Below are positions 3,309-40,007 of a stretch of DNA of 64,000 nucleotides, one piece after another. The position numbers were made by a program, and so were the translations under genes. Positions within the stretch are counted from its first letter, which is position 1. Every line of letters starts with the position of its first letter. Under the pieces are notes generated by a model, which had not been told where the DNA came from, ran no database searches, and saw only the letters and a list, made by a program, of their open reading frames with translations. This DNA comes from a bacterium (lineage in GTDB: Bacteria > Patescibacteriota > Minisyncoccia > Phycocordibacterales > Phycocordibacteraceae), in the NCBI GenBank assembly GCA_037200965.1, contig JBBCGK010000001.1, positions 256,001 through 320,000 of the forward strand. Direction: 5' to 3'.

Positions 3309-4337
3309 TTGTCAGGAAAGGGCAAACTGATGAAACATGACATCAGCTCTAGCGACAGCATTAGAACTGGACTGTGGGTATCACTTCTTGCGGGACTTGT
3401 TGCCGCACTGATCGTCTACTGGGCACTTGATGATTTTGGCCCCTATATCGCAGGTGCAGGAGCTTGTGCAGCCCTCGGCATGGTAGCTGGAACGCTCAAT
3501 AAGTCGGGCTATCTCGGCTATACCCCTCCCGGGGAAGTCGGCGCAGACACGATAAACGGTGAACTGACCGGCAGGATTCGCGGGCCAGGTTATCCGTGGG
3601 CAATTCCCGGTCTTGGCGGCCAAATCCCCCTGAACGTTCAGGAGCGTAAGATTTCACCGCGTATCTTTACCGAACTCGTCGGAAAAGTACCGGTAGAAGT
3701 TGAGCTTTTGAGTACAGGCCGGATCGTCGATGCACGGAAGCACTTCCAGGCGCAACAATCTGAAGATATCCTGCTGCCCGAGTTCATCGAAACGCAGGCG
3801 CGAGCCTTCATGGGCCCGTGGAAAGACGCCGGTGGCGTAATCCTGCAGAAGGATCTGGTTGCCGAATATCTCGGGCTCCCGGCAAAGGCAGATGATCGCG
3901 GCGAACATTCGAAGCTCGAGGCAAAACTCCTCGAGTGCACTGTCGTTACCGAAGAGGACGACACGCCCGATTTGCCAAAAAGCGCCGTCAGGACGCTTAT
4001 GGCGAACGCGGGCAAAGTGCGCGAACAAGCCGCGAAATGGGGCCTCGAAATCGGCGTGATGCAAACCAGGCATTTCGACCTTCCGCAAAGCCTGAAAGAC
4101 ATCGGCGCGCTCGCGCTTATCAACATCAAGCGCGGGGAGATGATCGAGGAACTCAAGAAGCACAAGGGTATCCCCGAGCAAGATATTCTCAACTCCGTCG
4201 ACATGCTGATGAAGCTGCCGATCACAAAATCGGTCTCGGACATCCAGATCCGCGATCTCGACGCAGTGGCGGCGCACTTCGGCAAAGCAATCGCCGAATT
4301 GCTCTTCCGCTACATCAAAAACACAGGAGGCAAATAA
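3309..4337 (+). CDS. SPFH/band-7 (stomatin/flotillin-like) membrane protein
   Basis: N-terminal TM helix, then G..R.PG....PG.G..IPLNVQER...VEV..STGRIVDA..HFQ and a later ..WGLEIGVMQTRHFDLP segment matching the SPFH beta-sheet and helix pattern. Confidence 0.55.
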   Translation: MSGKGKLMKHDISSSDSIRTGLWVSLLAGLVAALIVYWALDDFGPYIAGAGACAALGMVAGTLNKSGYLGYTPPGEVGADTINGELTGRIRGPGYPWAIPGLGGQIPLNVQERKISPRIFTELVGKVPVEVELLSTGRIVDARKHFQAQQSEDILLPEFIETQARAFMGPWKDAGGVILQKDLVAEYLGLPAKADDRGEHSKLEAKLLECTVVTEEDDTPDLPKSAVRTLMANAGKVREQAAKWGLEIGVMQTRHFDLPQSLKDIGALALINIKRGEMIEELKKHKGIPEQDILNSVDMLMKLPITKSVSDIQIRDLDAVAAHFGKAIAELLFRYIKNTGGK

Positions 4338-4819
4338 TGGCTACAGCCACCACAGCAACGACAACATCCGGAACTCAAGCGAGCGATGGACAAAATCGCG
4401 GACTCCCACCCAAAGAACTCTGGCCGCGCGTTCTGAAGTGGGGCGGCCTCGGAATCGCAGCGATCATACTGATCGCTGGAGCTAAAAGTCTTTATGCTGA
4501 TCATAAGACTCAGGAACAATCACGCCAAGCCGAAGCCGCCGTCCTTGTCTGCCCGCCCGCAAACGCAAGTTTGCAGCAATGCAGGATGCTCGTCGGAACG
4601 GTGAATAAGATCGACACGAGCGCATGCTCCACGGTCGAATTCCGGCCGATACCGAAGCCGGAATACGCCAAGGCGGAGTATCTTCCCGCCGGTCTCCGTG
4701 ACGTCCGGCAAAACTATCAGCGCTGGACGGGAACGGAAGATCTCCCGGCTCATATCGACGCCTGGCGGATCGAGCCCACTGCGGGCGAAATCCCCCAAGG
4801 CTACCAGTGCCTCAACTAG
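4337..4819 (+). CDS. Membrane-anchored hypothetical protein: poly-Thr/Ala N-terminus, one TM helix, Cys-containing ectodomain. Translationally coupled (TAATG) to the SPFH gene.
   Basis: The ATG overlaps the SPFH stop by 1 nt, with aggagg 8 nt upstream. A TM segment WGGLGIAAIILIAGA is present. A terminator hairpin follows at 4842-4885. Confidence 0.5.
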   Translation: MATATTATTTSGTQASDGQNRGLPPKELWPRVLKWGGLGIAAIILIAGAKSLYADHKTQEQSRQAEAAVLVCPPANASLQQCRMLVGTVNKIDTSACSTVEFRPIPKPEYAKAEYLPAGLRDVRQNYQRWTGTEDLPAHIDAWRIEPTAGEIPQGYQCLN

Positions 4820-4901: not shown

Positions 4902-5177
4902 CTAGGATGTAAACTTCGGTACCGACGGAATGCCGAACGTGCCCGTAATGACGCCCAATATGCCAAACACGCCGAAAATGATGACGAGGCCGACCAAGCC
5001 CCAGAGAATGGAACTCCTTCCCTCTTCCCGCGCGGTCTCGTCCCCGGCATTCGCAACGAACTTGAAGACGCCCCAGAGGAAGATGAGAAATGCCGCCGCA
5101 GCGATAAGCATGAGGAGCGGATTCACGATCTGCACCACGACGGTCTTGAGGAAATTATTCAATACGTCCATAGGCAT
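4902..5177 (-). CDS. Small two-TM protein with VirB2/TrbC-like topology (T4SS-pilin-like), paralog 1; no signal peptide
   Basis: Helix-loop-helix core FLIFLWGVFKFVANAGDETAREEGRSSILWGLVGLVIIFGV, shared with the five upstream paralogs. Confidence 0.55.
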   Translation of the reverse strand: MPMDVLNNFLKTVVVQIVNPLLMLIAAAAFLIFLWGVFKFVANAGDETAREEGRSSILWGLVGLVIIFGVFGILGVITGTFGIPSVPKFTS

Positions 5178-5236
5178 AAGAATAACACAAAGCCCCGGCC
5201 AGCGGCCGGGGCTTTGTGTTAAAACGCCGGGAGAAA

Positions 5237-5590
5237 CTAGAAGTCTGCCTGCGGAAGCGGAGGCGTCGCGTTATTGGTCGAGAAGGTACCTACGAGGATA
5301 TTCACGAGGCCCCAGATCGAGACCATAACGAAGAAGCCGATAAGGCCGTAGAGCATGAGTTTCTTGCCCTTTTCCTTCGCGTCTTCGTCGTTCGCCCCGA
5401 TGATGAAGACCTGGAAAGCGCCCCAGATGAAGACGATGAAGGCGACGGCAAAGAGCACCGGCACCAGGACGTTATTGATGATATTGATGACCGTGGTACC
5501 CACATCGGATACGCTTGAGATAGTGGCGGCACCGGCAAGGAGCGGCGTCAAAAGTGCGATTGCGGCAAACGGCGCGAGGTATTTCTTCAT
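5237..5590 (-). CDS. VirB2/TrbC-like pilin-like protein, paralog 2, with signal peptide
   Basis: Signal peptide MKKYLAPFAAIALLTPLLAGAA, then the two-hydrophobic-helix core VLFAVAFIVFIWGAFQVFIIGANDEDAKEKGKKLMLYGLIGFFVMVSIWGLVNIL. Confidence 0.6.
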   Translation of the reverse strand: MKKYLAPFAAIALLTPLLAGAATISSVSDVGTTVINIINNVLVPVLFAVAFIVFIWGAFQVFIIGANDEDAKEKGKKLMLYGLIGFFVMVSIWGLVNILVGTFSTNNATPPLPQADF

Positions 5591-5699
5591 AATGGTGATA
5601 TTCGTATAATGGCTCCCCGGCGTTGAGCGGAGTTCCCCTTATTCTAGCTTGCCTTCGCCCCAGGGCAAGCCGCGTCCCTGATTCGTGTGGATAAGAACC

Positions 5700-6122
5700 T
5701 TAAAGGGTCGGGTAGTCGGGCCGCGCGTATCCTCCAAGGCCGAGCGTATTGGAGAGGATATTGACCAGGCCCCACAGCGAGAACATCACCACGAAACCGA
5801 TCAGCCCCCAGAGGATGAACTGCCTTCCTTCCTTGCGCTTGTCCTCGTCCGCACCGCCCACGATGAAGTAGTTGAAGACGCCCCAGAGGAATACAAGGAA
5901 GGCGATGGTAAACAGGATGGGTACGAGAATATTGTTGATGACCACGAGCACAAGATCGCCGTAGTGGCCGAAGGCGCCCGCATTAACAACCGACACCGTC
6001 GGCCCCGGGCTTATCTGCGGAGTCCCGTCTCCCGTGACAGGATCGATCGCCGCAGCCGCATAGGAACAAAGCGGCGCCCCAAGAACCAGAAGCGCGATCA
6101 GGAAAGGAAGATATCGTTTCAT
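5700..6122 (-). CDS. VirB2/TrbC-like pilin-like protein, paralog 3, with signal peptide and a variable Gly/Pro/Thr-rich segment
   Basis: Signal peptide MKRYLPFLIALLVLGAPLCSYAAA; core FLVFLWGVFNYFIVGGADEDKRKEGRQFILWGLIGFVVMFSLWGLVNIL. Confidence 0.6.
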   Translation of the reverse strand: MKRYLPFLIALLVLGAPLCSYAAAAIDPVTGDGTPQISPGPTVSVVNAGAFGHYGDLVLVVINNILVPILFTIAFLVFLWGVFNYFIVGGADEDKRKEGRQFILWGLIGFVVMFSLWGLVNILSNTLGLGGYARPDYPTL

Positions 6123-6128
6123 ACGGGA

Positions 6129-6446
6129 TTAATAAGAAGTCGGATAAGCCGGATGGCGGTACCCGCCAAGATCGAACGTGTTAACGAGTATGTTGACCAG
6201 CCCCCATACCGAAAGCATGACGAAGAATCCGACGAGGCCGTACAGGATATACGTGCGGCCCGTCTCGCGTTTCGTTTCGTCGTCCGCGCCCAGTATGAAG
6301 TATTGGAAGACGCCCCAGATGAAGACGATGAAGGCGACGGCGAAAACGAGGGGAACGGCGACATTGTTGATGAGGCCGAGAATAGTACCGGCGATGCCCT
6401 GGAGGTTGCCGCAGTTTCCTACGCACAGCGAGAATGAGAATCCCAT
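6129..6446 (-). CDS. VirB2/TrbC-like pilin-like protein, paralog 4
   Basis: Core FAVAFIVFIWGVFQYFILGADDETKRETGRTYILYGLVGFFVMLSVWGLVNIL. Lies 6 nt downstream of paralog 3. Confidence 0.55.
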   Translation of the reverse strand: MGFSFSLCVGNCGNLQGIAGTILGLINNVAVPLVFAVAFIVFIWGVFQYFILGADDETKRETGRTYILYGLVGFFVMLSVWGLVNILVNTFDLGGYRHPAYPTSY

Positions 6447-6457
6447 ATGGTTTAGTA

Positions 6458-6703
6458 TTATAGCGCGATTATGCTAAGGCCGATGCGTATCAATCCCCAG
6501 ACCCCGAACATGACCACAAGCCCGATCAGCCCCCAGAGGATGAACTGCCTTCCTTCCTTGCGCTTGTCCTCGTCCGCGCCGCCCACGATGAAGTAGTTGA
6601 AGACGCCCCAGAGGAATGCGAATCCCGCAAGCGCAAAGACGACAGGAATGACAATCCCGCCTATGATGGCTACGATCGAATTGACGAGTTCGGCAAAGGT
6701 CAT
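6458..6703 (-). CDS. VirB2/TrbC-like pilin-like protein, paralog 5. Start chosen at the internal Met (MTFAELVNS...) because the N-terminal extension shown in the ORF track overlaps the upstream gene.
   Basis: Core FAFLWGVFNYFIVGGADEDKRKEGRQFILWGLIGLVVMFGVWGLI is nearly identical to paralog 3. The ATG lies 1 nt after the stop of the upstream gene. Confidence 0.5.
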   Translation of the reverse strand: MTFAELVNSIVAIIGGIVIPVVFALAGFAFLWGVFNYFIVGGADEDKRKEGRQFILWGLIGLVVMFGVWGLIRIGLSIIAL

Positions 6704-6704
6704 A

Positions 6705-7247
6705 TCAGGTGCCAAGCGCCTGTACCGTCGCCTGGATTCCGAGCGAGATCGCCTTGGCGCCAAGGAGAATGAGCGCTCCGACGACCGTCCACAGGAGCGC
6801 CTCGCGCGCCTCCTTTATTTTTTCTTCCGCTCCCTGCGCGGTCACGAATTTGAAACCTACGTAGACGAGCATCAAGACGATGACGATGCCGCCGATCTGT
6901 ATCACGAGGTCGAGGACGGCATTGAGGAAATCCGGAATCGTCGAAAAGCCGAGAGGATTCGTAAGGCCGCTTCCGCCTCCCCCGCCGCCTGGAACCGTTC
7001 CCGCCGGACGGCATACTCCCGCCACGCAGGTATCAGTGCCGGTGCAGGCAGGCTTGCAGGCTGAACCGCCGGGAACGGTACCGGCCGCTTGGCATTTGCC
7101 GTTGACGCATGTATCGGTACCGGTGCAAGCAGGAAGGCAGGCGGAGTCGGCGGCCTGCGCAGGAGCAGGTACGAGGATAAACACCATGAGAAACGCGACC
7201 GTGGCCGGAACAATAAAATACTTGCCTGTAGCGTTCATGATTTTCAT
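6705..7247 (-). CDS. Pilin-like paralog 6: signal peptide, two tandem Cys-rich repeats (ACxPACTGTDTCVxGxCxxAGTVPGG), a Gly-rich linker, then the VirB2-like two-TM C-terminal core
   Basis: Start at MKIMNATGKYF (ATGA overlap with the stop of the SBP gene). Repeats ADSACLPACTGTDTCVNGKCQAAGTVPGG and SACKPACTGTDTCVAGVCRPAGTVPGG. C-terminal FKFVTAQGAEEKIKEAREALLWTVVGALILLGA. Confidence 0.55.
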   Translation of the reverse strand: MKIMNATGKYFIVPATVAFLMVFILVPAPAQAADSACLPACTGTDTCVNGKCQAAGTVPGGSACKPACTGTDTCVAGVCRPAGTVPGGGGGGSGLTNPLGFSTIPDFLNAVLDLVIQIGGIVIVLMLVYVGFKFVTAQGAEEKIKEAREALLWTVVGALILLGAKAISLGIQATVQALGT

Positions 7248-8542
7248 TGTATCGCCTGAGTCAGCGCGCGCTCGGCGGAAACAAGGGCTTCGCTTAGGGA
7301 TACGCGTCCGGTAATCACGTCCATAATCATAGCGCCGAATATGCGGTCCGTATCCTCGGGCGCTGGGGACAGCCATCCCCGGCTTATAAGCGCTTCGCGA
7401 TAAAAGACCGAAGCGAAAGGATCGGCGGGCTCGGTTCCAAGAAGCGACAGGCGTGCGGGCGCAAGCCCCGTGGCGCCCGCAAGCGCGGTCATAACCGCGG
7501 GATCCGCGAGCGCGACGGCGGCGCTATAGGCACCGGCGGGGTTCGGACTCCCTTTGGGGATAGCGAACGCGTAGAGGTCGCCGAACGTAATCCGGTTCAC
7601 GGCATTCCCCGTCTGCGGCAAGGCCGCGACATCGAAATCGAGATTGGGATTCGCCGCACGCAGGAACGGCGCATCGGACGCGAAGCCGATATACAGCGCG
7701 AGATCGCCGGAGACGAACGCCTGCCTTGAATCCGGGAGCGACCCGTTCCAGGTATAGGAAACTTTCGAAGGATCGGCGAACTGGGTGTAGTAGCGCACCA
7801 CGGCCTCCCCGGGAGAGACGCCGCCAAAGCTTTGCGTCTCGGCGCCAAGCGATGCCTTGAGGCCGAGTGTCGTGCGGGCCGAGAGCGGTACTCCGCTTTG
7901 GAGAAAGAGCGCGGAAAGAATAGCGCCCGCGTGGTCGACGTTGGCATAGGTTCCAAGACCGATGAGCCCGCGCTCGATGTTCCTCCCTCCGTCAAGCTGC
8001 GCCGTACGCGGCACGAGTCCGACAAGGGCCTCCCATGCCGACGGAGGAGCTACGATACCGGCGGACGAGAGAGTCGCGCGGTTGTAGTAGAGGACGAGCG
8101 GATCGACCGCGAGCGGAATGCCGTAGACCCCGTCGGACGCAAGGAAAAGCTGCCCTTCCTGCACGAACGCGTCGGTAAAGGCGCGCGCCGAAATCGAGCT
8201 GTACGGGATCGGTATAAGCTTGTCCTCAAGCGAGACGAGATGCTCCTGGCTTATGAGCACCAGGTCGGGGCCCGTACCCGACGCCAGAGCGTCGACGAGT
8301 TCCCGTTCGAAGGTCGCGGGCTGCTTGCCGACATACCGTATGCCCTTAAGCTCGGTATTCTGGCCCGTAATGTTCGCAAGAGCCGGGGCGATCTCGTCCT
8401 GAGGGAGCGTGCCCCATATCGTCACCGTCCCGATGGAGCCGGTGCCGGAGGAGCCGGTGAAGGTCGCGAAGACGAAGATGCCGATTAGCGCGAGGAGGAC
8501 AAACGCGCCGATGATTCCCGCCTGGAAAAATGAGATCTTCAT
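7244..8542 (-). CDS. Extracellular solute-binding protein (family-1 SBP-like; ABC-type sugar-binding fold) with an N-terminal membrane anchor
   Basis: Start taken at MKISFFQAGIIGAFVLLALIGIF. Motifs LISQEHLVSLEDKLIPIP and GVYGIPLAVDPLVLYYNR are typical of SBP_bac_1. Confidence 0.6.
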   Translation of the reverse strand: MKISFFQAGIIGAFVLLALIGIFVFATFTGSSGTGSIGTVTIWGTLPQDEIAPALANITGQNTELKGIRYVGKQPATFERELVDALASGTGPDLVLISQEHLVSLEDKLIPIPYSSISARAFTDAFVQEGQLFLASDGVYGIPLAVDPLVLYYNRATLSSAGIVAPPSAWEALVGLVPRTAQLDGGRNIERGLIGLGTYANVDHAGAILSALFLQSGVPLSARTTLGLKASLGAETQSFGGVSPGEAVVRYYTQFADPSKVSYTWNGSLPDSRQAFVSGDLALYIGFASDAPFLRAANPNLDFDVAALPQTGNAVNRITFGDLYAFAIPKGSPNPAGAYSAAVALADPAVMTALAGATGLAPARLSLLGTEPADPFASVFYREALISRGWLSPAPEDTDRIFGAMIMDVITGRVSLSEALVSAERALTQAIQ

Positions 8543-8543
8543 G

Positions 8544-9074
8544 TTAGGGAGCGGTAAATACGATGCCGTAGTGATGGGGGCCGGCGCTGAACTTCTTAAC
8601 CACATGGAAACCGGCGGCGGCAAAGACCGCTTCGGCCGCTTGTTCGTTCACCACGTGTGAAGGGTCCGGGCCGAGCCCCCCGTACGCTCCGGCCCAATCG
8701 ATGACCAGAAGCTTCCCTCCGGGCTTAAGAATACGGCGCAGTTCGGCCGCGACTATCGCCTTCTCTTTTATCTGAAACAGCGTGTTGGAAAGAATCGCAC
8801 CGTCGACCGCCTGATCCCGAAGCGTGGTTCCGCGCGGCTTCTCGATATCGCCCCATACGGTTTCTATGGTCCGCACCCCCTGCTCCCGCGCCGTTCCCTG
8901 AATGCGCTTCAGCACATCCTCCTGAACATCGATCGCATATACCCGCCCGTCCACCCCCACGGCGTGCGCCGCGGCAAGGGAATAGTGTCCGCTCCCCGCC
9001 CCGAGGTCCGCCACTTTCACTCCTTCCCTGAGGCCCATCTGCAGTACGTTCGTCTTCGGATCGGCGAAATTCAT
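8544..9074 (-). CDS. Class I SAM-dependent methyltransferase
   Basis: Motif I VADLGAGSGHYSL, and acidic residues after beta-2 (AIDVQED). The stop lies 1 nt before the SBP start. Start chosen at MNFADPK, with a tatact -10-like box upstream; the longer start at 9125 is also possible. Confidence 0.65.
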   Translation of the reverse strand: MNFADPKTNVLQMGLREGVKVADLGAGSGHYSLAAAHAVGVDGRVYAIDVQEDVLKRIQGTAREQGVRTIETVWGDIEKPRGTTLRDQAVDGAILSNTLFQIKEKAIVAAELRRILKPGGKLLVIDWAGAYGGLGPDPSHVVNEQAAEAVFAAAGFHVVKKFSAGPHHYGIVFTAP

Positions 9075-9194
9075 GCGATCAGTATAGCAAGAGCGCCCGC
9101 GCTGCTGGCGCATAGTCAACAGCATATAAAAACAGGCGGTCTTTCGGCCGTCCGCGCCACAAGCATTGCTTCCGGGAGCGAAACGGCCCGGCGA

Positions 9195-10679: not shown

Positions 10680-13600
10680 TTAAAGCGCCACCATCGACGC
10701 GATTGAATCGCCCTCGTAGAGCCGCATGATACGCACGCCCTGGGTCGCGCGGGAAAGCGACGGCACTTCCTTGGCGGTGATGCGGATAACCTGTCCCTTT
10801 TTAGAAACAACGACGATTTCCTCATCCGACACGTCCTTCCCGAGAAGCACTTTCGCGCCGATGATCTCGCCCGTCTTCGGTGTCACCTCTGCCGTCTTGA
10901 TGCCGGAACCTCCCCGGCCTTGCACCTTGTATTCGGAAAGCTCGGTCGACTTGCCGTATCCTTTCGACATGATGACGAGGAGGGACGCGTCCTTGGCTGC
11001 GGCCGAAATCACTTCCGCGGAAACGACCGTGTCGCCCTTGCGCACGCTCATGCCGCGCACGCCTCCGGCGGTCCGCCCCATCGCGCGCACGTCGCCCTCC
11101 TCGAAGCGGATGCTTTGGCCCTTGGCGGTTACGATCGAAACGCTGTCGCTCTCTTCGGCAAGATGCGCGGCAACGAGCTTATCGCCGTCCTTGAGGTTGA
11201 TCGCGATGATGCCCGAGCGGCGTACATCCGCGAAGGACTTTGCTTCCACTTTTTTCACAATGCCGTTTGCCGTCACGAAGAATACCGACAAGGCGTCGCG
11301 CTCGGCGCCCTTGGGGACCGGAAGTACCGAAGTCACCTTCTCGTCACCGGCAAGCGGAAGGAAGTTCATCATGCTCTTTCCCTTGGTCGCGCGCTTCCCT
11401 TCGGGGATCTCGTACATCTTGAGCTGGTATGCCTTGCCGTAGTCGGTGAAGAAGAGGAGGTCGGAGTGCGCCGAGGCCGCGAGGAAGTGCGTCACGACGT
11501 CCTCCTCCTTGGTCGAGAGGTCGACGACGCCGACGCCGCCGCGCTTCTGCGTCTTGTATTCCGACGGGTTCGTGCGCTTCACGTAGCCTCCGGCGGTGAG
11601 GACGAGGACGGACTCCTCGTCCGGCACCAGGTCTTCGACGGAGATGTTCTGAACCCCGCCTTTGACGATCTTCGTGCGGCGGTCGTCGCCGTATTTCTCG
11701 CCGATAGCGACGAGTTCCGTCTTCACGACCGCGAGGATGTTCTTTGCGGAAGAGAGTATCTTCTCGAGCTTCGCGATAAGCGCCTGGACCTCCGCCAGTT
11801 CGTCCTCGATCTTCTTGCGCTCGAGGCCCGCGAGTTTCGACAGCCGCATCTCGAGGATCGCCGCCGCCTGAAGCTCCGAAAATGCGAATTTCTTCTGGAG
11901 CGCGAGGGACGCGGCCGGGACATCGGCGGCTTTCTTGATGATCGCGATGACCTCGTCGATATGGTCGAGCGCTTTCGAAAGTCCGAGGAGGATGTGCTCG
12001 CGCGCCTTCGCCTGCCGGAGATCGAATTCGGTACGCCGCTTCACCACTACTCTCCGGTGTTCTATGAAATTCTCGAGAATGCCCTTGAGCGAAAGCGTCT
12101 GCGGCACGCCGTCGACGAGCGCAAGCATGTTGTAGTGGAAAGCGCTCTCGAGCTCGGTGTGCTTATAAATCGTATTGAGGACGGCCTGCGGGTGCGCCGT
12201 GCCTTTGAGCTCGACGACAATGCGGGTCTCAAATGACGTCGTCGACTCGTCGCGCAGGTCCCGTACGCCCTCGAGCTTCTTGTCGCGCACGAGATCGGCG
12301 ATGCGGGTGATGAGGTCGGCTTTATTGACGCGGTACGGGATCGAGGTGATGACAATTTTCGAATCCTTCTTGCCGTCGTCGACGATCTCCGCTTCGCCGC
12401 GCACCACGACCCCGCCCCGTCCGCTTATGTACGCCTGCCTGATATCGGCCTGGTTAAAGGCAACCCCCCCGAGCGGGAAATCCGGGCCTTTGACGAATTT
12501 GAGGAGGTCCTCGGTCGTCGCCTCGGGCTCGTCGATGAGGTGCACGGTCGCGTCGACCACTTCCCGCAGGTTATGGGGCGGTATTGCGGTTGCCATGCCG
12601 ACCGCGATACCGAGCGTGCCGTTAAGGAGAAGGTTCGGCACGGCGGCGGGAAGCACGGATGGCTCCTTACGGCTCGCGTCATAGTTGGGGTTCCATTCGA
12701 CCGTGTCCTTGTCGAGGTCGTTCATGATGTCCTCCGCGATGCGCGACATCTTGGCCTCGGTATTGTGGTTTATGAATCCGTTAGCGACAAAGGAGTGGCA
12801 CTCGCTTCGCACCCGGATCGAATACACAGGAGCTGGTGCCTCGTTCGTTACGGAAGCCACTACATCGAACAAATACCGGTGGCGCGAGAGTTCGCCGAAC
12901 AGCGCCTCGACCGTCGGACGCACATGCGGCAGCACGGCGGAGGCGACGAGCGGGCCATGTTCGGCAAGCGCGGTGTATCGGTCGAAATTATGCTTGCGTA
13001 CGAATCTCCCGATACCCTGATAGCTCGGCGGTGCAAGATGCGAACGCACGTATCCTGCGATGAACGGCACGTAGTCGGTAGCCGATGAGTCCTTGGAGAG
13101 CCGCGCGATCGCTTTGCCAAGCTTCGTTTTCTTGCGCGCGGAAACAAAACCGATCTCGCGCTCAAAGAGGCGGTAGTCATGGAGACCCCGTATATAGAGC
13201 TTTTCGATCGCGCGGTGGCAGTCGTGACGGCGCGTGCTTGCGATGCCAAGGCGCATAAGAACGACCTGCATTTCGTCGAGAAGCGCCGTGCTCTTAGATA
13301 CGACGCTCAATTCCGTCATTTTCGACGAGAAGCTTATGCCGCCGTCGCCTTCAAAATACGCCTGAAGGAAAGCTGCGACGACTGGCTTCGGAGACCGCAG
13401 CACCGAGAACGGGATACGCTTTTCGGGCGATTTTACCGGCGCAAGCCCTATAGCGCGCAGAAACGCAATCACATATTGCGAGTGAATCTCGATGGTGTAG
13501 TACGGCTTCTTACCATAGGAAGACGGTTCGCGCCTGAAGTGGTGCAGGCGGCAGCCAGGAAACACGCGGGCGAAGCGCTCGACGAAGGCCTGGATGAGGT

Positions 13601-14489
13601 CGGGGTCGCTGTTGCAGAACTCCAACTCCTTTTCCTTGATGGTACCTTCCGATACGAGGAGGCCGAGGATGAATGCCAGGTCTTCGGTAAGCTCCGCAGG
13701 CAGCTGCTGTACTGTAATCCGTTTGTTCGCGACTTTCGGAACAAAGGGCGTGAGGGAGAGCGGGTGTTCCGGCCACAAAAGGTCGGGGGTCCGATCCATC
13801 ACCACCACGTCGCCTTCGTCGATATCGGCAAGAAGCTTCCACGCGAAGCGGGGTACGCCAGTTGCCGGATCCTCGTGCCAGATAAGAAGCGGGTGGTTGC
13901 GGGAACCACGGATCCGGTATCCCCGATTGGTTTTGAGGGCTATCGTTGGATGAACGCCGCTATCGAACCACGCATCGGCCGAATTGATCCGGCCGTTCAT
14001 CGAAATCACCCGCGCCTCGATTTCTTCCGTGCCGTCGTCGGATAGTTCCTTGATGGGAACCAGACCCTTATCTGTCGCAACAAGCGTGTCCCCCGTGACG
14101 CAATACCGCATGGCGGCTGGCGAGTCGCCGTCGATCGAGCCGAAATTGCCCTGCCCGATCACGAGCGGATAGCGGTGCGAGAAATCCTGCGCAAGCTTCG
14201 TCATCGCGTCATAGACGCTCGCGTCGCCGTGCGGATGGTATTTGCCGAGCACGTCGCCGACGACAAGCGCGGACTTGCGGAATTTCGCGCCCGCCGTGAG
14301 CCCAAGCTCGCTCATGGCGTAAAGGATGCGGCGGTGTACCGGCTTCAGGCCGTCGCGCACGTCGGGAAGCGCGCGGGAGGTGATCACGCTCATCGCGTAA
14401 TCGACGTAGGAGGTGCGCATCTCGCCCGTGATGCTCTGCCCTATGATGCGCCCGCCAAGCGGTACGGCCGACTGTTCTTCCTTAGCCAT
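10680..14489 (-). CDS. gyrA: DNA gyrase subunit A interrupted by a 447-aa intein; the exteins total 822 aa
   Basis: N-terminus ...[13 protein letters not shown]...GKYHPHGD...SPAAMRY; the C-terminal GyrA beta-pinwheel repeats are intact. The intein lies between AAMRY and TEAKMS. Confidence 0.9.
12762..14102 (-). mobile_element. GyrA intein at the canonical gyrA-a site, with an embedded LAGLIDADG homing-endonuclease domain
   Basis: Begins CVTGDTLV (block A) and ends VANGFINHN followed by extein T (HN|T). Two LAGLIDADG motifs: [14 protein letters not shown] and [14 protein letters not shown]. Confidence 0.85.
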
Positions 14490-34757: not shown

Positions 34758-34881
34758 GCGCCCATTTTATCACTCATGATGTTTCCACACCCCGCATGAC
34801 GCACGTCGCGGCATAACAAGAATAAACGAAGGGCCATGCGCTGCGCATGGCCCTTCGTTTTGCGAGTGATTACCCTGGCGG

Positions 34882-35019
34882 CTAGAGATTGTCAGCCGCT
34901 TTATCCGCCTCTTTCTGCGCGTCGTCGGCGTGCTCCTGTTTCCCCGCAGCTTCGCGCTCGTCGCCCGCCTGTTCCTCGTGTTCTTGCGCGCGTTCGTTCA
35001 AGTTATCTGCATCAGCCAT
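34882..35019 (-). CDS. Small acidic ORF (45 aa); not in the ORF track. Low confidence.
   Basis: MADADNLNERAQEHEEQAGDEREAAGKQEHADDAQKEADKAADNL. A hairpin plus T-tract follows immediately on the minus strand (34806-34850). Confidence 0.3.
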   Translation of the reverse strand: MADADNLNERAQEHEEQAGDEREAAGKQEHADDAQKEADKAADNL

Positions 35020-35074
35020 GGTGGTTGATCGGTTATGGGTACCAGTCCTTTATACCGGTCCCCTGCTGAAGCGA

Positions 35075-35419
35075 TTATGAAGGCGTATGGTGCGAGTGCC
35101 TGTGCTCCGCGCTTGCCTCGCCTTCCCCGGGCATCTTTCTTCCCTTGGCTTCGTAGTATCCCTCGAAATAGCCCTCGCGGTGCCCTTCGCGTGTCGCGAA
35201 CGTGTAGAGCGCATAGGCGAATATGAGGATGCCGATGAAGCTCGGGAACGCGGTCTGGAAGCACAGGATAAGCGCGATGCCGAGGATGCTGAGCGTAATA
35301 AGGACGGGGTTGCTGAGGATCCGCGGTCCCGCCCGCCACTCTTTGTACTCGCTCTCGAGCCGCTCGAATTCCTCGCCGCCGAGCCTTTTTAGATCGCTCA
35401 TTGTCTTATTCGTTTTCAT
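35075..35419 (-). CDS. Two-TM membrane protein, hypothetical
   Basis: Hydrophobic segments LITLSILGIALILCF and FIGILIFAYALYTF; charged termini. Confidence 0.45.
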   Translation of the reverse strand: MKTNKTMSDLKRLGGEEFERLESEYKEWRAGPRILSNPVLITLSILGIALILCFQTAFPSFIGILIFAYALYTFATREGHREGYFEGYYEAKGRKMPGEGEASAEHRHSHHTPS

Positions 35420-35448
35420 GGTGCGTGTTTGGTTAGTGACTTAAAGCG

Positions 35449-35778
35449 CTAGAACAGGACAAATGCGAGATTGACCGCGCACAAGACGATGCTGAAGAGG
35501 AGCGCCGCAAGAATCCCGTCCACCCTGAATCCCGGCACCACCATGGAGACGAGAAGTATGATGACCGCGTTTATGACAAGGGAGAAGAGCCCGAGCGTAA
35601 GGATGTTCACCGGAAGCGTAAGGAGGGTGAGGATGGGCTTGAGAAATATGTTCAGAAGCCCGAGCACGACCGCGACGATAAGCGCGGTTCCGAACCCCGC
35701 TACCGCGACTCCCGGAAGAAGGAACGCGGCGACGATAATGGCAAGGCCCGAAATGAGCCAGTGGATGAGTAGAAGCAT
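35449..35778 (-). CDS. YvlD/DUF360-family membrane protein (phage holin-4 superfamily)
   Basis: MLLLIHWLISGLAIIVAAFLLPGV...LNIFLKPILTLLTLPVNILTLGLFSLVINA pattern. Confidence 0.6.
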   Translation of the reverse strand: MLLLIHWLISGLAIIVAAFLLPGVAVAGFGTALIVAVVLGLLNIFLKPILTLLTLPVNILTLGLFSLVINAVIILLVSMVVPGFRVDGILAALLFSIVLCAVNLAFVLF

Positions 35779-36005
35779 GAATGGGTATTAGAAATAAGGA
35801 CGCGCGGAGCCGCGTGCGAGCAGCCCGTAGAACAAGAGTACGGAAATCAAAATAACGGCGATCTCAAGGGGAGATGATGGGGCGATAAACCGAAATCGGG
35901 AACTTGAACTACAAAACAAAGACCGCCCTGTCAGCAGAGTTTCCGAAAGGACGGACCCTGCGACAAGGCGGTTTATGGGCAGGAACGCCCGCGCAATACT
36001 CTCCG

Positions 36006-36440
36006 TCAGCGCAGGCGCTTCGCCAGGCCGATTGCAGCCTTGCGAACTTCCGGCGTCAAATTGAGATCGAGGAAGTCTCGATACGACACCCATTTTAACG
36101 CCGAATGCTCATCGCTGAGCTTTTTTATTCCGCCGACGAGTCGGCACACGCTAAACAACACAACATACGGCAGACCCTTGTACGCGCCGTCGCCGATAAC
36201 GTAGCTGTCTGCGAAGCATTGAAGCTCGACGGGGGTAACGAAATACCCCGTCTCTTCGATTACCTCGCGTTCCTGCGCATGAGCGATGTCTTGGCCTTGA
36301 TCGAGTTTGCCACCCGGACATTCCCAGAGGCCAGCGTGATGGCTCTCGTTGGCCGATCGTCGTATGGCGAGCAGTCTTCCGTCATGGCGCTTTACGAAAG
36401 CGCGGGTGACGAGGACCACGCGCGGACGTGGTGAGGGCAT
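36006..36440 (-). CDS. NUDIX hydrolase
   Basis: Nudix box GLWECPGGKLDQGQDIAHAQEREVIEETG. Confidence 0.8.
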   Translation of the reverse strand: MPSPRPRVVLVTRAFVKRHDGRLLAIRRSANESHHAGLWECPGGKLDQGQDIAHAQEREVIEETGYFVTPVELQCFADSYVIGDGAYKGLPYVVLFSVCRLVGGIKKLSDEHSALKWVSYRDFLDLNLTPEVRKAAIGLAKRLR

Positions 36441-36515
36441 GGTGCAAGCGTCCTTCGGCGCTGATTAGAACATCCCGCAATACAATGGCATAAGGATTAT
36501 ATAACGCAAGCGCTG

Positions 36516-36587
36516 TGACCCCGACGGGAATCGGACCCGTGTTTGGTCCTTGAAAGGGACCTGTCCTAACCATTAGACGACGGGGCC
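36516..36587 (-). tRNA. tRNA-Glu (anticodon TTC)
   Basis: The reverse complement gives ggccccg..D gtct/ggac..anticodon stem ggtcc/ggacc with loop ctTTCaa..T-arm acggg-tccgatt-cccgt..cggggtc+a. The T-loop is slightly unusual (TCCGATT). Confidence 0.65.
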
Positions 36588-36645
36588 GTCTTCTAACCTG
36601 CGTATCCTAGCATTTTACCGCCTAAATGCTAGAATCCTTGGCGTT

Positions 36646-36731
36646 GGAGGCGTCGGATAGTGGTTTATTCCAGCGGTTTCGAAAACCGCCATACCGCAAG
36701 GTATCGTGAGTTCGAATCTCACCGCCTCCGC
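36646..36731 (+). tRNA. tRNA-Ser (anticodon CGA), class II
   Basis: Acceptor ggaggcg/cgcctcc, anticodon stem gcggt/accgc with loop ttCGAaa, long variable arm, T-arm gtgagttcgaatctcac. Confidence 0.8.
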
Positions 36732-36871
36732 AAATCGAAGCGGGAAAGAAGTTGAAGAAGCCACAGGCGTATATTTCAAAGATAGAACGAGGCGAGCGCG
36801 GCGTTGATGCAGTCGAGCTCGCGGAGTTCGCAAAGGTTTACGGAAAACCGATGGATTATTTTATCAGGTAA
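36731..36871 (+). pseudogene. N-terminally truncated XRE-family (Cro/C1-type) HTH gene remnant abutting the tRNA-Ser 3' end
   Basis: The in-frame translation ...LKKPQAYISKIERGERGVDAVELAEFAKVYGKPMDYFIR* covers only helix 3 onward of an HTH_3 domain. No start codon or helix 1-2 precedes it. The frame runs into the tRNA. Confidence 0.5.
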
Positions 36872-36883
36872 CGTTTCATCATT

Positions 36884-37171
36884 ATGGAAGCAGAAGCACA
36901 AAAAGAGGTTTCAGAAAAGAAAAAATTTATAGATTTGAAACCGAACAAGCTTTCAATGGTTCTTCTTGCCGTGAGCGTAGTGGTTATATTTGTCTACGAC
37001 CACTCTGACGTTATTGGCTTGCTTGGTTTTCTGTTGGGCTGGCTGGTCGCCGTCATTTTTTTGGAAAGATTGGCTCGATTTATTTTCTCAAAGGTTTCTA
37101 GGGGGACTGCTCTCAACATCGCGCTGGTTGTGTATCTCATCATTTTCTTTCTCGTGCGCGGCGGCTTCTAA
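36884..37171 (+). CDS. Small membrane protein, hypothetical (AT-rich island)
   Basis: 95 aa, two TM helices; GC content markedly below the window average. Confidence 0.4.
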   Translation: MEAEAQKEVSEKKKFIDLKPNKLSMVLLAVSVVVIFVYDHSDVIGLLGFLLGWLVAVIFLERLARFIFSKVSRGTALNIALVVYLIIFFLVRGGF

Positions 37172-37183
37172 GGAAGTTCGCGC

Positions 37184-37636
37184 ATGGTACTTTTCTTTCG
37201 CAGTAAAAATGAGCTGCTGTATTTTTTCTTAGGAATAATCTTCATTGCGCTTCCCGTAGGGATCGCGCTTGAGTACGTGGGAGTTAGTTTAGACGTTTAT
37301 GAAATGGCCGCGCTCGGTGCTTTTGGTGCGCTGCTTATTGTGCTACTCGACAAATTCCTTGCCCGAAGAAAAATGGAGCGGATCGCCCTTTTTTGGGTAG
37401 AGCGACAAGCACACGATTTGGCGGAAGCATCAAAACGCTACCCGATAAAAAATAAGCCGGATAATTCCGCAGCCTTTGATACACACTTGGCGTATTTCAA
37501 CGAACTTAGCGATATATCAAAAAGGGAGGGCATGAAGAAATTCAAACTCTCTGAAAAAGACTGGCATGACTTCCTCGGCTATATGATAATGAAGTCAAAA
37601 AATGACAAGACCAAACCGCAGCCTGCGCGACATTGA
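37184..37636 (+). CDS. Membrane-anchored hypothetical protein (AT-rich island)
   Basis: 150 aa with two N-terminal TM helices and a soluble C-terminus. Confidence 0.4.
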   Translation: MVLFFRSKNELLYFFLGIIFIALPVGIALEYVGVSLDVYEMAALGAFGALLIVLLDKFLARRKMERIALFWVERQAHDLAEASKRYPIKNKPDNSAAFDTHLAYFNELSDISKREGMKKFKLSEKDWHDFLGYMIMKSKNDKTKPQPARH

Positions 37637-38168
37637 GTACGAAATCGTAAACCAGATATACCTCTGCGAAATCTGTTTTGATGTCTGTAAGGCAGTACCG
37701 AAACTACCCGGGCGCGGAAGCGATTTTTTGCCTTTCTATTACAACCTCAACTTTTCAAAGGGTGTTATCTCGCTCCACAGTTTATTGCTCTCAAACTCGC
37801 CAGGCGAGCTATCGATAAGAAACTTCCTCGCTCAATACAAAGCAGACTATTCACGCGAAGACACCGCAGAAATTGAGGCAAAAGTCGCTTCCATTGCCGA
37901 TGCGTTCAAAAAGGTTCTTCCTCTCTCATTGCGGCATAAGGTCGCCGCGCACATTGACCAAGAATTCAAGCACGCCAATTTTACAAGTGCGTATATCGTC
38001 CCCGATGCGGCAGAAAAGTATGCAGAAATTGTGCGCAAACTGAAAGATGCCATTTTTGCTTTTACAAATTACGCGCAAGACGATTACCCGCACGGCAGGA
38101 TTTTAGAGCAGTCAAAGACGGCAATTGAGCAAATAATTTCGGAATCTGATGAGACGTATCGTCTTTGA
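37602..38168 (+). CDS. Hypothetical protein, possibly HEPN/abortive-infection-like (R-x5-H motif)
   Basis: 188 aa and all-alpha in character. Contains SLRHKVAAHID, which fits the HEPN R-x(4-6)-H signature. Low GC. Confidence 0.3.
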   Translation: MTRPNRSLRDIEYEIVNQIYLCEICFDVCKAVPKLPGRGSDFLPFYYNLNFSKGVISLHSLLLSNSPGELSIRNFLAQYKADYSREDTAEIEAKVASIADAFKKVLPLSLRHKVAAHIDQEFKHANFTSAYIVPDAAEKYAEIVRKLKDAIFAFTNYAQDDYPHGRILEQSKTAIEQIISESDETYRL

Positions 38169-38635
38169 GTTATGGGGAGCCAGTCCTGCCGTTTTATAAT
38201 GTTTCCTAAAACGACGGGGCTGGCTGTGCGCGGACTGGGTGGGTGGGCCAAGCACATACAAACATGACTGCGCCCTAGCGCAGACCGCAGTGTATTGCGC
38301 CTCGGATCGCCTTTTGATTACGGAGCAAGGGGCTTCAATGTGGATACTTTGTTGCCCCTTGTGGAGTTTTCAAAACGCGACGCAAACCAAAAACTTCCTT
38401 TCCTCTTTTTCGCCTTTCGGCGGAGGGGTGGGGGGAGGAGCCGGAGAAAGAAATGCAAGGAAACTTTTGGGTTTGACCGCGCGAGTCCGCGAGCGCGGCC
38501 GAGGCGCGTTCAGGTCAGGTGGGTTCGCGCAAAGGTGATACACTCACCGCCCAGTACCGATATTCGAACTTGACAAAAGCTCTTTTACTAAAAAGAACAG
38601 CCCGATTTAACGGACTGCAGTTGAAAAGATTTATC

Positions 38636-39190
38636 TCAATTATGAAGCTGAATGTTGATAACCACTTTCTTCGGCACTTTGCCGTAGATGGCTTCAAGAT
38701 AAAACCGACTGATATCCATCCAGATACCTAGCCAGAGCGTGAACACAAGCTTTTCGCGATTCAGGCCGAGATAGGTCGGCTCGAGCGAGACAGGGTCGTA
38801 ACCGAGGCAATATTCGTCTGGCCTTTCACCGCCAATGGATCTGGTAGTGATTCCCGACTTCCAGAAGTGATGGAACCTCAATTCTCCTTCTTCCTCTTTC
38901 CAAAGTCGGAAGTGCCCGATTCGGTCCTTATTAACTCCGCCTTCCCATTCTTTCTCTTCCTGGCGCTCTGCATCCTTAATGGTGACCTCACCTTGGCCGG
39001 GAGAGTACCCCGATACGTCTTCACCAGAAGACCTTGTACGGGAGCGATATTTCATTTGAATACGTTTCGATTCTTTGAGTCCGGAGCCGTATTTAACAAC
39101 CCTTCGTGCCGCCTCTCGATTCTCGTCGATCCGTGCGATAATTTTCTCAAGAGCGGCATTTACCGCCATTCGCTCTGTATTCGATGTCAT
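38636..39190 (-). CDS. Hypothetical protein (AT-rich island)
   Basis: 184-aa ORF with no recognisable motif. Confidence 0.4.
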   Translation of the reverse strand: MTSNTERMAVNAALEKIIARIDENREAARRVVKYGSGLKESKRIQMKYRSRTRSSGEDVSGYSPGQGEVTIKDAERQEEKEWEGGVNKDRIGHFRLWKEEEGELRFHHFWKSGITTRSIGGERPDEYCLGYDPVSLEPTYLGLNREKLVFTLWLGIWMDISRFYLEAIYGKVPKKVVINIQLHN

Positions 39191-39320
39191 CCAGGTTCTC
39201 CGAGGTTGAAGTTACTACCTATCCGAATACTTTATATAAGGAGCGACTGGCTCGGTCAAACATCCTCTTCAGGGGCCTGTTTCAAATCAGGAAATGTTAA
39301 AGTAAGCGGACTTATAGCCT

Positions 39321-40007
39321 ATGAACCTCCAAATCGAGCACCTAAAAGGCAAAACGGACTTGCTGCAAAAGAAACTCGGCCATCCTGACTATCGCGCTAT
39401 CTACGGCACGGGCTGTATAACGCAGCCTGATGTGTGTCTGATTTTGATGAACCCAACGGCGAGAAACGTTTCAGTACATAAACAATGGAAAGGACTCAGG
39501 GCTTCGTGGCTCGGGACAAAAAACATATGGAAACTCCTGTACCAGCTCGGTTTCCTAGACAAACAGACTTTTACAGCCACTCAAGACAAAAAGCCTCGGG
39601 ACTGGGATGATGCATTTGCGAGGAGTTTGTATACGAAGCTTGCCGAAAAGAAAGTGTTTCTAACAAACCTGGGCCGGTCCACCCAGCCGGATGCGAGGCC
39701 CCTTCCGAATTCCGTATTCGCGGCGTGCGCTCCCCTGATGGAAGAAGAGATCGATTTCATCAGGCCGAACGTAGTGATTACGTTCGGAAATCAGGTGAGC
39801 TCTGTTTTGTTGCAACGGCCGATAAAGGTTTCGGAAGTGAGGAGAAAGCCGTTTGAGCTTAAGACGAAAGGCGGCGTTTATACGACGTACGCGACCTATT
39901 ACCCCGTGGGGATGGGCATTATGAACATGGGTAAGGCGGCGGAGGATATCAAATGGATTCTTTCAAAGCATTCCATCAAAGAACTCCCGGCAAAGCTCCG
40001 CGCCTGA
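39321..40007 (+). CDS. Uracil-DNA glycosylase-superfamily protein (family 4/6-like)
   Basis: GTGCITQPDVCLILMNPTARN resembles the UDG motif A (GxGxxx + hydrophobic + GE/NP), and VVITFGNQ and YYPVG resemble motif B. Confidence 0.45.
   Translation: MNLQIEHLKGKTDLLQKKLGHPDYRAIYGTGCITQPDVCLILMNPTARNVSVHKQWKGLRASWLGTKNIWKLLYQLGFLDKQTFTATQDKKPRDWDDAFARSLYTKLAEKKVFLTNLGRSTQPDARPLPNSVFAACAPLMEEEIDFIRPNVVITFGNQVSSVLLQRPIKVSEVRRKPFELKTKGGVYTTYATYYPVGMGIMNMGKAAEDIKWILSKHSIKELPAKLRA

Follow-up and report, generated by a model that had tools for sequence, protein, structure and literature searches.

A VirB2/TrbC-like pilin with a duplicated four-cysteine module in the first position of a conserved six-gene array of Patescibacteria

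Introduction

Patescibacteria are mostly uncultured, and many of them are attached to host cells. Their genomes contain arrays of VirB2-like pilin genes, 441 such arrays of 2–11 genes having been found in 383 assemblies (PMC12102498). In Southlakia epibionticum, the one genetically tractable species, whose strain ML1 has six VirB2-like pilins (PMC12857230), transposon sequencing (Tn-seq) classed the predicted pilin genes of the type IV secretion system (T4SS) cluster as essential for epibiotic growth (PMC10633639). Here we describe a pilin gene (pilin-1; 6705–7247, minus strand) of an ultrasmall bacterium, located in a 64-kb stretch of the Patescibacteriota contig JBBCGK010000001.1, hereafter called the window, to which all coordinates refer unless another locus is named. 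Open reading frame (ORF) translation and Pfam searches show that the 180-amino acid product of this gene is a VirB2/TrbC-like T4SS pilin carrying an N-terminal extension made of cysteine modules.

In the solved VirB2 pili both termini point outward and the turn or loop between the two helices faces the lumen; cleavage and cyclisation of the subunits have also been mentioned. The VirB2-like family and its arrays are already known, and what is new in pilin-1 is the appended, duplicated four-Cys module, which is common in the databases yet undescribed in the literature that we searched. The Patescibacteria pilin papers (e.g. PMC12102498) do not mention a Cys-rich or any other N-terminal domain on pilins, and a full-text literature search for Cys-rich VirB2 in Patescibacteria found nothing.

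Results

Architecture of pilin-1

The protein is identical to WDN10_01640, an NCBI protein from a metagenome-assembled genome (MAG; 960-kb contig). We place the start at M1 (7245–7247), whereas the NCBI annotation begins at M4; the choice between the two is immaterial. A preliminary description of the gene, made from the DNA sequence, had listed a signal peptide, a poly-Gly linker and a conserved two-helix pilin-like core, and all three could be located. Residues 1–32 (7152–7247, minus strand) constitute a predicted Sec signal peptide, recognized by its hydropathy and its A-x-A motif and matched by equivalent N-termini in orthologs. Its n-region is basic (K2, K9), its hydrophobic stretch has a Kyte-Doolittle value of 2.7 over residues 11–25, and its last three residues are A-Q-A. 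Cleavage would be expected to occur after A30-Q31-A32, which resembles a signal peptidase I site.

The predicted mature protein starts with the two copies of the Cys module. Repeat 1 (residues 36–62, 7062–7142, minus strand; ACLPACTGTDTCVNGKCQAAGTVPGGS) contains C37, C41, C47 and C52 and the linker AAGTVPGGS, repeat 2 (residues 63–89, 6981–7061, minus strand; ACKPACTGTDTCVAGVCRPAGTVPGGG) contains C64, C68, C74 and C79 and the linker PAGTVPGGG. The poly-Gly linker is a run of six glycines (G87–G92; 6972–6989, minus strand), the first three of which are also the last residues of repeat 2. The sequence and the predicted local distance difference test (pLDDT) values, which are below 50 at residues 88–91, suggest that this run is a flexible hinge by which the modules are joined to the core. 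It is followed by the motif L-T-N-P-L (residues 95–99; 6951–6965, minus strand), which lies directly N-terminal to helix 1. In an alignment of 101 sequences L95, P98 and L99 were invariant and N97 was conserved in at least 90%. In many pilin-1 orthologs this part reads N-(V/I/M)-T-L-(I/V)-N-P-L, i.e. an N-x-T sequon stands directly before the invariant NPL motif. Pilin-1 of the window has LTNPL without the sequon, which in the orthologs could be a glycosylation or a processing site.

The core consists of the hydrophobic helix 1 (residues 104–136; 6840–6938, minus strand), supported by hydropathy and by its location within the Pfam match described below, and of helix 2 (residues 141–179; 6711–6827, minus strand). 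AlphaFold2 modelled the two as a hairpin, with pLDDT values above 90 for both helices. The region around the inter-helix loop, K133–R148, holds four K/R residues (K133, K143, K145, R148).

Residues 103–167 match the Pfam family PF18895 (T4SS_pilin) with 42.0 bits (cut-off 26.6, E = 1e-10). The score for PF04956 (TrbC/VirB2) is 26.1 bits, slightly below the cut-off of 27.9. Pilins 1, 2 and 4 of the window also showed weak matches to NCBIfam NF045849, the Mbov_0395 pilin-like conjugal transfer protein of a Mycoplasma integrative and conjugative element (ICE), with E values between 2e-5 and 1e-8; at 24–34 bits these scores are below the curated cut-off of 40, and pilin-1 is therefore not a member of NF045849. 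When the structural model was compared with the PDB by Foldseek, the top match was the VirB2 protein from the T-pilus of Agrobacterium tumefaciens, but with E = 1.6 this match was not significant. We assign the core to the VirB2/TrbC-type family of type IV secretion pilins on the basis of the sequence profile matches and the gene context, because the fold searches were uninformative. The word pilin is to be understood here in the T4SS sense. A type IV pilus pilin was considered and rejected, since the protein does not contain the G/(F,M)-T-L-(I,L)-E prepilin peptidase (class III) motif and there was no type IV pilus family among the Pfam matches.

The duplicated cysteine module

The two repeats of approximately 27 amino acids with four Cys each, which had been noticed in the preliminary description, are identical at 21 of 27 residues and at 56 of 81 nucleotides (69% nucleotide identity), and the spacing of the cysteines is the same in both, C-x3-C-x5-C-x4-C. 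The internal-repeat alignment score of the extension was 124, compared with 30.8 ± 5.6 (maximum 60) in 500 composition-preserving shuffles of the same segment (z = 16.5). The codon differences between the copies comprise 11 synonymous and 6 nonsynonymous changes. The NG86 estimates of the nonsynonymous (dN) and synonymous (dS) divergence were 0.235 and 1.157, corresponding to a dN/dS ratio of 0.20. Since this ratio is low and the codon changes are mostly synonymous, we conclude that the two modules are the result of an old duplication, whose protein product has been kept under purifying selection, and not a slippage artefact. Tandem Repeats Finder, when run on positions 6600–7400, did not find a repeat at the DNA level, because the copies have diverged too far in nucleotide sequence.

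The extension in orthologs

To see how the extension varies, 69 non-redundant pilin-1 orthologs were compared, and Cys residues were counted on the signal-trimmed extension. Mean identity was 58% in the core, counted from the NPL motif to the end, but 20% in the mature N-terminal extension, which is between 14 and 236 amino acids long. G, S, T, P and N are abundant in the extensions, and short tandem repeats are frequent in them. The number of Cys residues in the extension was 0 (19 orthologs), 2 (6), 4 (21), 6 (2), 8 (13), 10 (3) or 12 (5). It was even in all 50 Cys-bearing orthologs (binomial p ~2e-15), and in 39 of these 50 it was divisible by four. Approximately 70% of the orthologs have Cys pairs at the same N-terminal position. 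Even counts which are mostly multiples of four point to disulfide-bonded modules of approximately four Cys, and we interpret this parity as the signature of extracytoplasmic modules of this kind. In these terms the orthologs have 0, 1, 2 or 3 modules, and pilin-1 of the window belongs to the two-module class.

Large Cys-bearing extensions are found mainly at the first array position. An extension with at least four Cys was found at position 1 in 75% of the six-gene arrays, at position 4 in 16% and at no other position; this tally includes signal peptides and some untranslated sequence and serves only to compare the positions with each other. The preliminary description had named related genomes as the place to look for similar fusion proteins beside pilin arrays, and they do occur there: Cys-bearing pilin-1 proteins head the arrays, and 50 of the 69 orthologs contain Cys.

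In some pilin-1 orthologs a long Cys-rich repeat extension follows the core at the C-terminus (locus L076, 9665–11011; locus L012, 9779–10933). The extension in L076 consists of three copies of a unit of approximately 40 amino acids with six Cys each. In these proteins the outward-facing C-terminus appears to be decorated too.

Identity of the module and similar repeats elsewhere

The repeats had been likened to a knottin or EGF-like head. This comparison did not hold: with four Cys per 27-amino acid unit instead of six the module cannot be a canonical EGF domain or knottin, and no family model matches it. The only Pfam matches of the module were sub-threshold (DUF7107, E = 0.17; Stig1, E = 0.38), and there was no EGF or knottin model among them. 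In the AlphaFold2 model short beta strands are predicted in repeat 2 at residues 63–66, 73–75 and 78–80, around a C3-x4-C4 hairpin, with pLDDT values of approximately 65–74.

When only the two-repeat segment was used as the phmmer query, a set of 1.84 billion representative proteins yielded 14 matches. When the sequences were read, most of these turned out to be spurious, with the AAGTVPGG linker aligned to Cys-free AAGTYPGTGTV repeats of actinobacterial proteins. Genuine Cys repeats were present in three of the 14: a hypothetical protein of Verticillium (CRK16432), a protein of an archaeal MAG (HOW29785) and an unnamed protein of the European Nucleotide Archive (ENA). CRK16432 contains 27 strict copies of the unit and HOW29785 contains 4. 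The consensus of these 31 units is CxPACxxxxTCVNGVCVP, and the units of pilin-1 match it at 10–11 of the 18 positions. The whole-protein phmmer E value was 1.9e-18, a value summed over many repeats.

A cluster member of CRK16432 is named 'EGF-like domain-containing' by UniRef. Pfam found no family in the Verticillium protein itself, which therefore supplies no domain name for the module. The archaeal protein matches BmKX (PF09132) with 37 bits (cut-off 24), while pilin-1 of the window had no PF09132 match at E ≤ 1. The likeness of so short a Cys motif may reflect either homology or convergence.

The subtype C-x-P-x-C-x5-C-x4-C is rare in pilins: among the 119 closest homologs a loose version was found in one (P0068, CSPACTGGQSCVN...). 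The same pattern was also noticed near the C-terminus of a third-position pilin (locus L047, 10540–11073) and at the N-terminus of a fourth-position pilin (locus L056, 10340–10711) of two other species. Its presence on pilins of other positions suggests that modules shuffle between array members.

Conservation of the six-gene array

Pilin-1 is the first of six PF18895 genes, which stand head to tail on the minus strand (4902–7247) and whose products are 17–59% identical in pairwise comparisons; no further PF18895 gene was found in the 64-kb window. Homologs of pilin-1 (421 at E ≤ 1e-3) come from Kaiserbacteria, Paceibacterota and Patescibacteria MAGs. Synteny was analyzed in 80 loci (L003–L082) of Paceibacteria/Kaiserbacteria relatives, obtained by scanning species-representative genomes. 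A pilin of the pilin-1 type was the first gene of a same-strand array of 5–6 PF18895 genes in all 80. In the 55 six-gene arrays the best matches of pilin-1 and pilin-6 of the window were without exception at positions 1 and 6, and those of pilin-2 and pilin-5 were at their own positions in 43 and 47 arrays, respectively; pilins 3 and 4 were ambiguous. Positions 2 and 6 consistently lack a signal peptide and an N-terminal extension.

By these matches the array appears as a set of conserved positional orthogroups, which suggests six distinct roles rather than interchangeable variants. A recent, lineage-specific amplification of paralogs for antigenic variation was also considered and was rejected because of the positional orthology. 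Pilin-1 had been described in the preliminary description as a pilin-like paralog. It is indeed one of a tandem set, but it differs from an ordinary paralog to which something has been appended, as it forms a first-position orthogroup of its own in 80 of 80 loci; its identity to the other five pilins of the window is 17–33%.

The array is accompanied by a gene (7244–8542, minus strand) encoding a membrane-anchored family-1 solute-binding protein (SBP) of the MalE-like, sugar type (Pfam SBP_bac_8, 5e-21; PDB 4r9f, MBP1, 1.8e-7). Its stop codon overlaps the start of pilin-1 as ATGA, and the pilin array is, as judged from this overlap, translationally coupled to the SBP gene. An SBP homolog was found directly upstream and on the same strand in all 78 loci with enough sequence. 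No gene for an ATP-binding cassette (ABC) permease or ATPase was found beside the SBP gene in the window or in two relatives. Further upstream lies a gene for a class I S-adenosylmethionine (SAM) methyltransferase (8544–9125, minus strand), identified by NCBIfam and Pfam methyltransferase matches. It is probably in one operon with the SBP and the pilins, because its stop codon is 1 nucleotide from the SBP start. The methyltransferase was present in 78 of the 80 loci. Relatives share the gene order of the window: GyrA, methyltransferase, SBP and the six pilins, followed by two genes of unknown product on the opposite strand and by RbfA and IF-2.

Other members of the array and neighbouring genes

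The remaining five pilin genes are all on the minus strand and all encode PF18895 proteins. Pilin-2 (6458–6703; 81 amino acids), whose ATG is 1 nucleotide past the pilin-1 stop codon, has neither a signal peptide nor an extension. Pilin-3 (6129–6446; 105 amino acids) has an N-terminal C-x3-C pair. Pilin-4 (5700–6122; 140 amino acids) has a signal peptide and a Cys-free extension, pilin-5 (5237–5590; 117 amino acids) a signal peptide, and pilin-6 (4902–5177; 91 amino acids) lacks a signal peptide. Between pilin-5 and pilin-6 there is a strong hairpin (5183–5221, minus strand) with an 18-bp stem containing 11 G-C pairs. It resembles a terminator or attenuator but has a poor T tail, and could set the expression ratio of pilin-6.

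Just downstream of pilin-6 and convergent with the array are an SPFH/Band_7-like gene (3309–4337, plus strand) and a gene of unknown product (4340–4819, plus strand). In the P0068 contig, too, the array is followed by a similar pair, consisting of a Band_7 gene and one of unknown product. The other window ORFs that were scanned, none of which encodes a T4SS ATPase or channel protein, are mostly housekeeping genes: those for IF-2, an intein-containing GyrA, S1, LepB, FtsA, FtsZ, thioredoxin reductase, HlyD/AcrB, TsaD, LepA, a P-type ATPase and an aminoacyl-tRNA synthetase. GyrA (10680–14489, minus strand) is 1269 amino acids long, compared with 823 in two relatives with the same synteny, and the inserted part resembles an intein that includes a segment of the homing-endonuclease type. 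The stretch from about 34800 to 40000 has a GC content of 0.49–0.55 against a background of approximately 0.59 and adjoins a tRNA gene (36516–36587). It contains several ORFs without Pfam matches as well as NYN and UDG-family genes, and may be an acquired island.

Discussion

The model that we favour, with moderate confidence, is that pilin-1 is the first-position VirB2/TrbC-like pilin of a conserved six-gene operon in a Patescibacterium of the Paceibacteria/Kaiserbacteria type and displays disulfide-stapled Cys modules outward. According to this model the protein would be exported by Sec and cleaved after AQA32, and the hairpin would be inserted N-out, loop-in, C-out, with the K/R-rich loop in the cytoplasm and both termini outside. 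This topology is proposed because of the K/R-rich loop and the exported, disulfide-type N-terminus, and VirB2-family propilins have it too. Two disulfides in each four-Cys module would hold it in the shape of a small beta-hairpin knob, carried by an AGTVPGG linker, and the Gly6 hinge would tether both knobs to the core. Should the core polymerise as VirB2 does, the knobs would cover a T4SS-type filament on its outer side; otherwise they would stand on the cell surface. In either case the outward, fast-evolving layer would meet the environment or the host cell, and duplication and loss of modules would be the mode by which this layer diversifies.

A surface for contact or specificity, or a protease-resistant coat, would be expected to combine a conserved packing core with an exposed part that is hypervariable and stabilised by disulfides. 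The extension most likely serves species-specific contact or adhesion, or forms such a coat. The preliminary description went further and proposed an adhesin tip or receptor-binding subunit, which must be regarded as speculation: the outward topology and the hypervariability would fit a contact surface, and they do not distinguish a tip or minor subunit from a shaft subunit.

Several observations weigh against the favoured model. No Cys is present in the extensions of 19 of the 69 orthologs, so the modules are dispensable for the function of the core. AlphaFold2 models the Cys region only at pLDDT 65–74, and a PDB sequence-profile search with pilin-1 returned no match. No T4SS machinery gene (VirB4, VirB6, VirD4, TrsD) was found among the ORFs scanned in the 64-kb window, nor, in two relatives, within 10 kb of the array. 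No PF18895 protein is known from experiment to form a pilus.

It is conceivable, but in our opinion unlikely, that pilin-1 is a specialised minor or tip subunit, present in one or a few copies at the distal end of a five-pilin filament, and that its Cys knobs are a receptor-binding adhesin. In the array it is mainly pilin-1 that bears a large Cys-rich extension; it constitutes a separate orthogroup with low identity to the five other pilins and invariably comes first in the operon, and a hypervariable extension would fit a receptor interface. However, the tip protein of the characterised T4SS pili is of the VirB5 type and not a VirB2 paralog (PMC12857230), and no other member of the array comes as close to canonical TrbC/VirB2 as pilin-1, which alone scores near the PF04956 threshold. 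Cys-free orthologs, and extensions as short as 14 amino acids, would also be odd for an obligatory adhesin.

We are equally doubtful about an arrangement in which there is no filament at all and the two-helix proteins stay in the cytoplasmic membrane as a channel, a complex or anchors, with pilin-1 serving as a display stalk, perhaps together with the SBP. Such an arrangement would agree with the detachment of the array from the T4SS machinery in the window and in relatives, with its constant coupling to a gene for a membrane-anchored SBP, and with the two array members that have neither signal peptides nor extensions; moreover, Gram-positive-type T4SSs are normally without pili (PMC10633639). 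On the other hand, the match at the family level is to pilins of conjugative systems, and PF18895 genes adjoin virB4 in 1135 of 1948 assemblies (PMC12102498). The six conserved and distinct subunits also suggest a heteromeric assembly.

There is only a slight chance that the Cys segment is a pro-region, which is removed upstream of the invariant L-x-N-P-L motif, in the manner of the long leaders of VirB2, TraA and TrbC propilins, so that the modules exist only transiently, e.g. for chaperoning or targeting. The conserved residues of this motif are situated exactly at the junction of extension and core, and canonical VirB2-family propilins are extensively processed at their termini. However, a normal Sec signal with an AxA site is already present at the extreme N-terminus, and the strict Cys parity together with the dN/dS ratio of 0.20 indicates a folded extracytoplasmic domain under selection. 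The length range of 14–236 amino acids would also suit a displayed, variable domain better than a leader.

That the repeat is a low-complexity or assembly artefact without function, with no conservation in homologs, can be dismissed, for although the region abounds in G, T, P and A and several database matches are merely compositional, to Cys-free AAGTYPGTGTV repeats, this explanation is refuted by the shuffle test (z = 16.5), the dN/dS ratio of 0.20, the identical Cys spacing of the two copies and the perfect parity of the Cys modules that recur in the orthologs, and it is also at odds with the C-x-P-x-C-x5-C-x4-C unit occurring 27 times in the Verticillium and four times in the archaeal MAG protein.

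Returning to the model of an outward-displaying first-position pilin, the locus shows that the array of Paceibacteria/Kaiserbacteria is a fixed set of six positional orthogroups and not a pool of interchangeable variants, that one of the subunits bears species-variable surface modules of the disulfide type, and that a sugar-type binding protein is always co-encoded. It thereby points to specific residues and genes as candidates for a role in host specificity, and the number and type of pilin-1 modules could be a simple marker for comparing populations. The pay-off is modest, since the family and the arrays have already been published. A more far-reaching idea, which we regard as improbable, is that the methyltransferase, the SBP and the six pilins are a self-standing, lineage-wide surface apparatus of Paceibacteria, encoded apart from the T4SS ATPase cluster. 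The six subunits would build a heteromeric filament or conduit, the rapidly evolving, disulfide-stapled modules of the first subunit would set the specificity for the host or partner, and the SBP would capture a host-derived sugar there. If this were true, host recognition and nutrient acquisition would for the first time become open to a molecular approach in the largest class of Patescibacteria, which is uncultured.

It is instructive to compare pilin-1 with known systems. Like the VirB2/TrbC/TraA pilins (A. tumefaciens T-pilus, RP4, F), it is a signal-bearing precursor with two hydrophobic helices and a short basic loop, and the Pfam match is at the level of the clan. The mature VirB2/TrbC/TraA pilins are approximately 65–75 amino acids long and have no extra domain, some of them being cyclised, whereas pilin-1 has a 64-amino acid extension of the disulfide type; furthermore, it is encoded in a six-gene array of a monoderm-type Patescibacterium and does not adjoin T4SS genes. 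The Mbov_0395 protein (NF045849) of the Mycoplasma ICE is likewise small and two-helical and belongs to the conjugation system of a monoderm, but its family has no Cys extension. The C-x-P-x-C-x5-C-x-N-G-x-C repeats of the Verticillium (CRK16432) and archaeal MAG (HOW29785) proteins agree with the module of pilin-1 in the Cys spacing and in several residues, but these are long, secreted multi-repeat proteins without a pilin core.

The pilins of type IV pili combine a conserved hydrophobic packing element with an exposed, disulfide-stabilised hypervariable region. In the major pilins these are the conserved alpha-1 helix and the hypervariable, disulfide-bonded D-region, a design analogous to that of pilin-1. 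The likeness is an analogy only: there is no homology, the fold is different, pilin-1 has no class III motif, and its variable part is N-terminal and not C-terminal.

Pilin-1 can also be compared with the published arrays of Patescibacteria, which are tandem sets of 2–11 divergent PF18895/PF04956 genes. The array described here agrees with this pattern and, with its six genes, with the array of S. epibionticum. The published arrays are described as part of the T4SS cluster or close to it, many of them in the vicinity of virB4, and have been read as host-range variation (PMC12102498). Unlike these, the array of the window stands apart from T4SS genes and has an SBP gene coupled to it, and its positions correspond to orthogroups across species.

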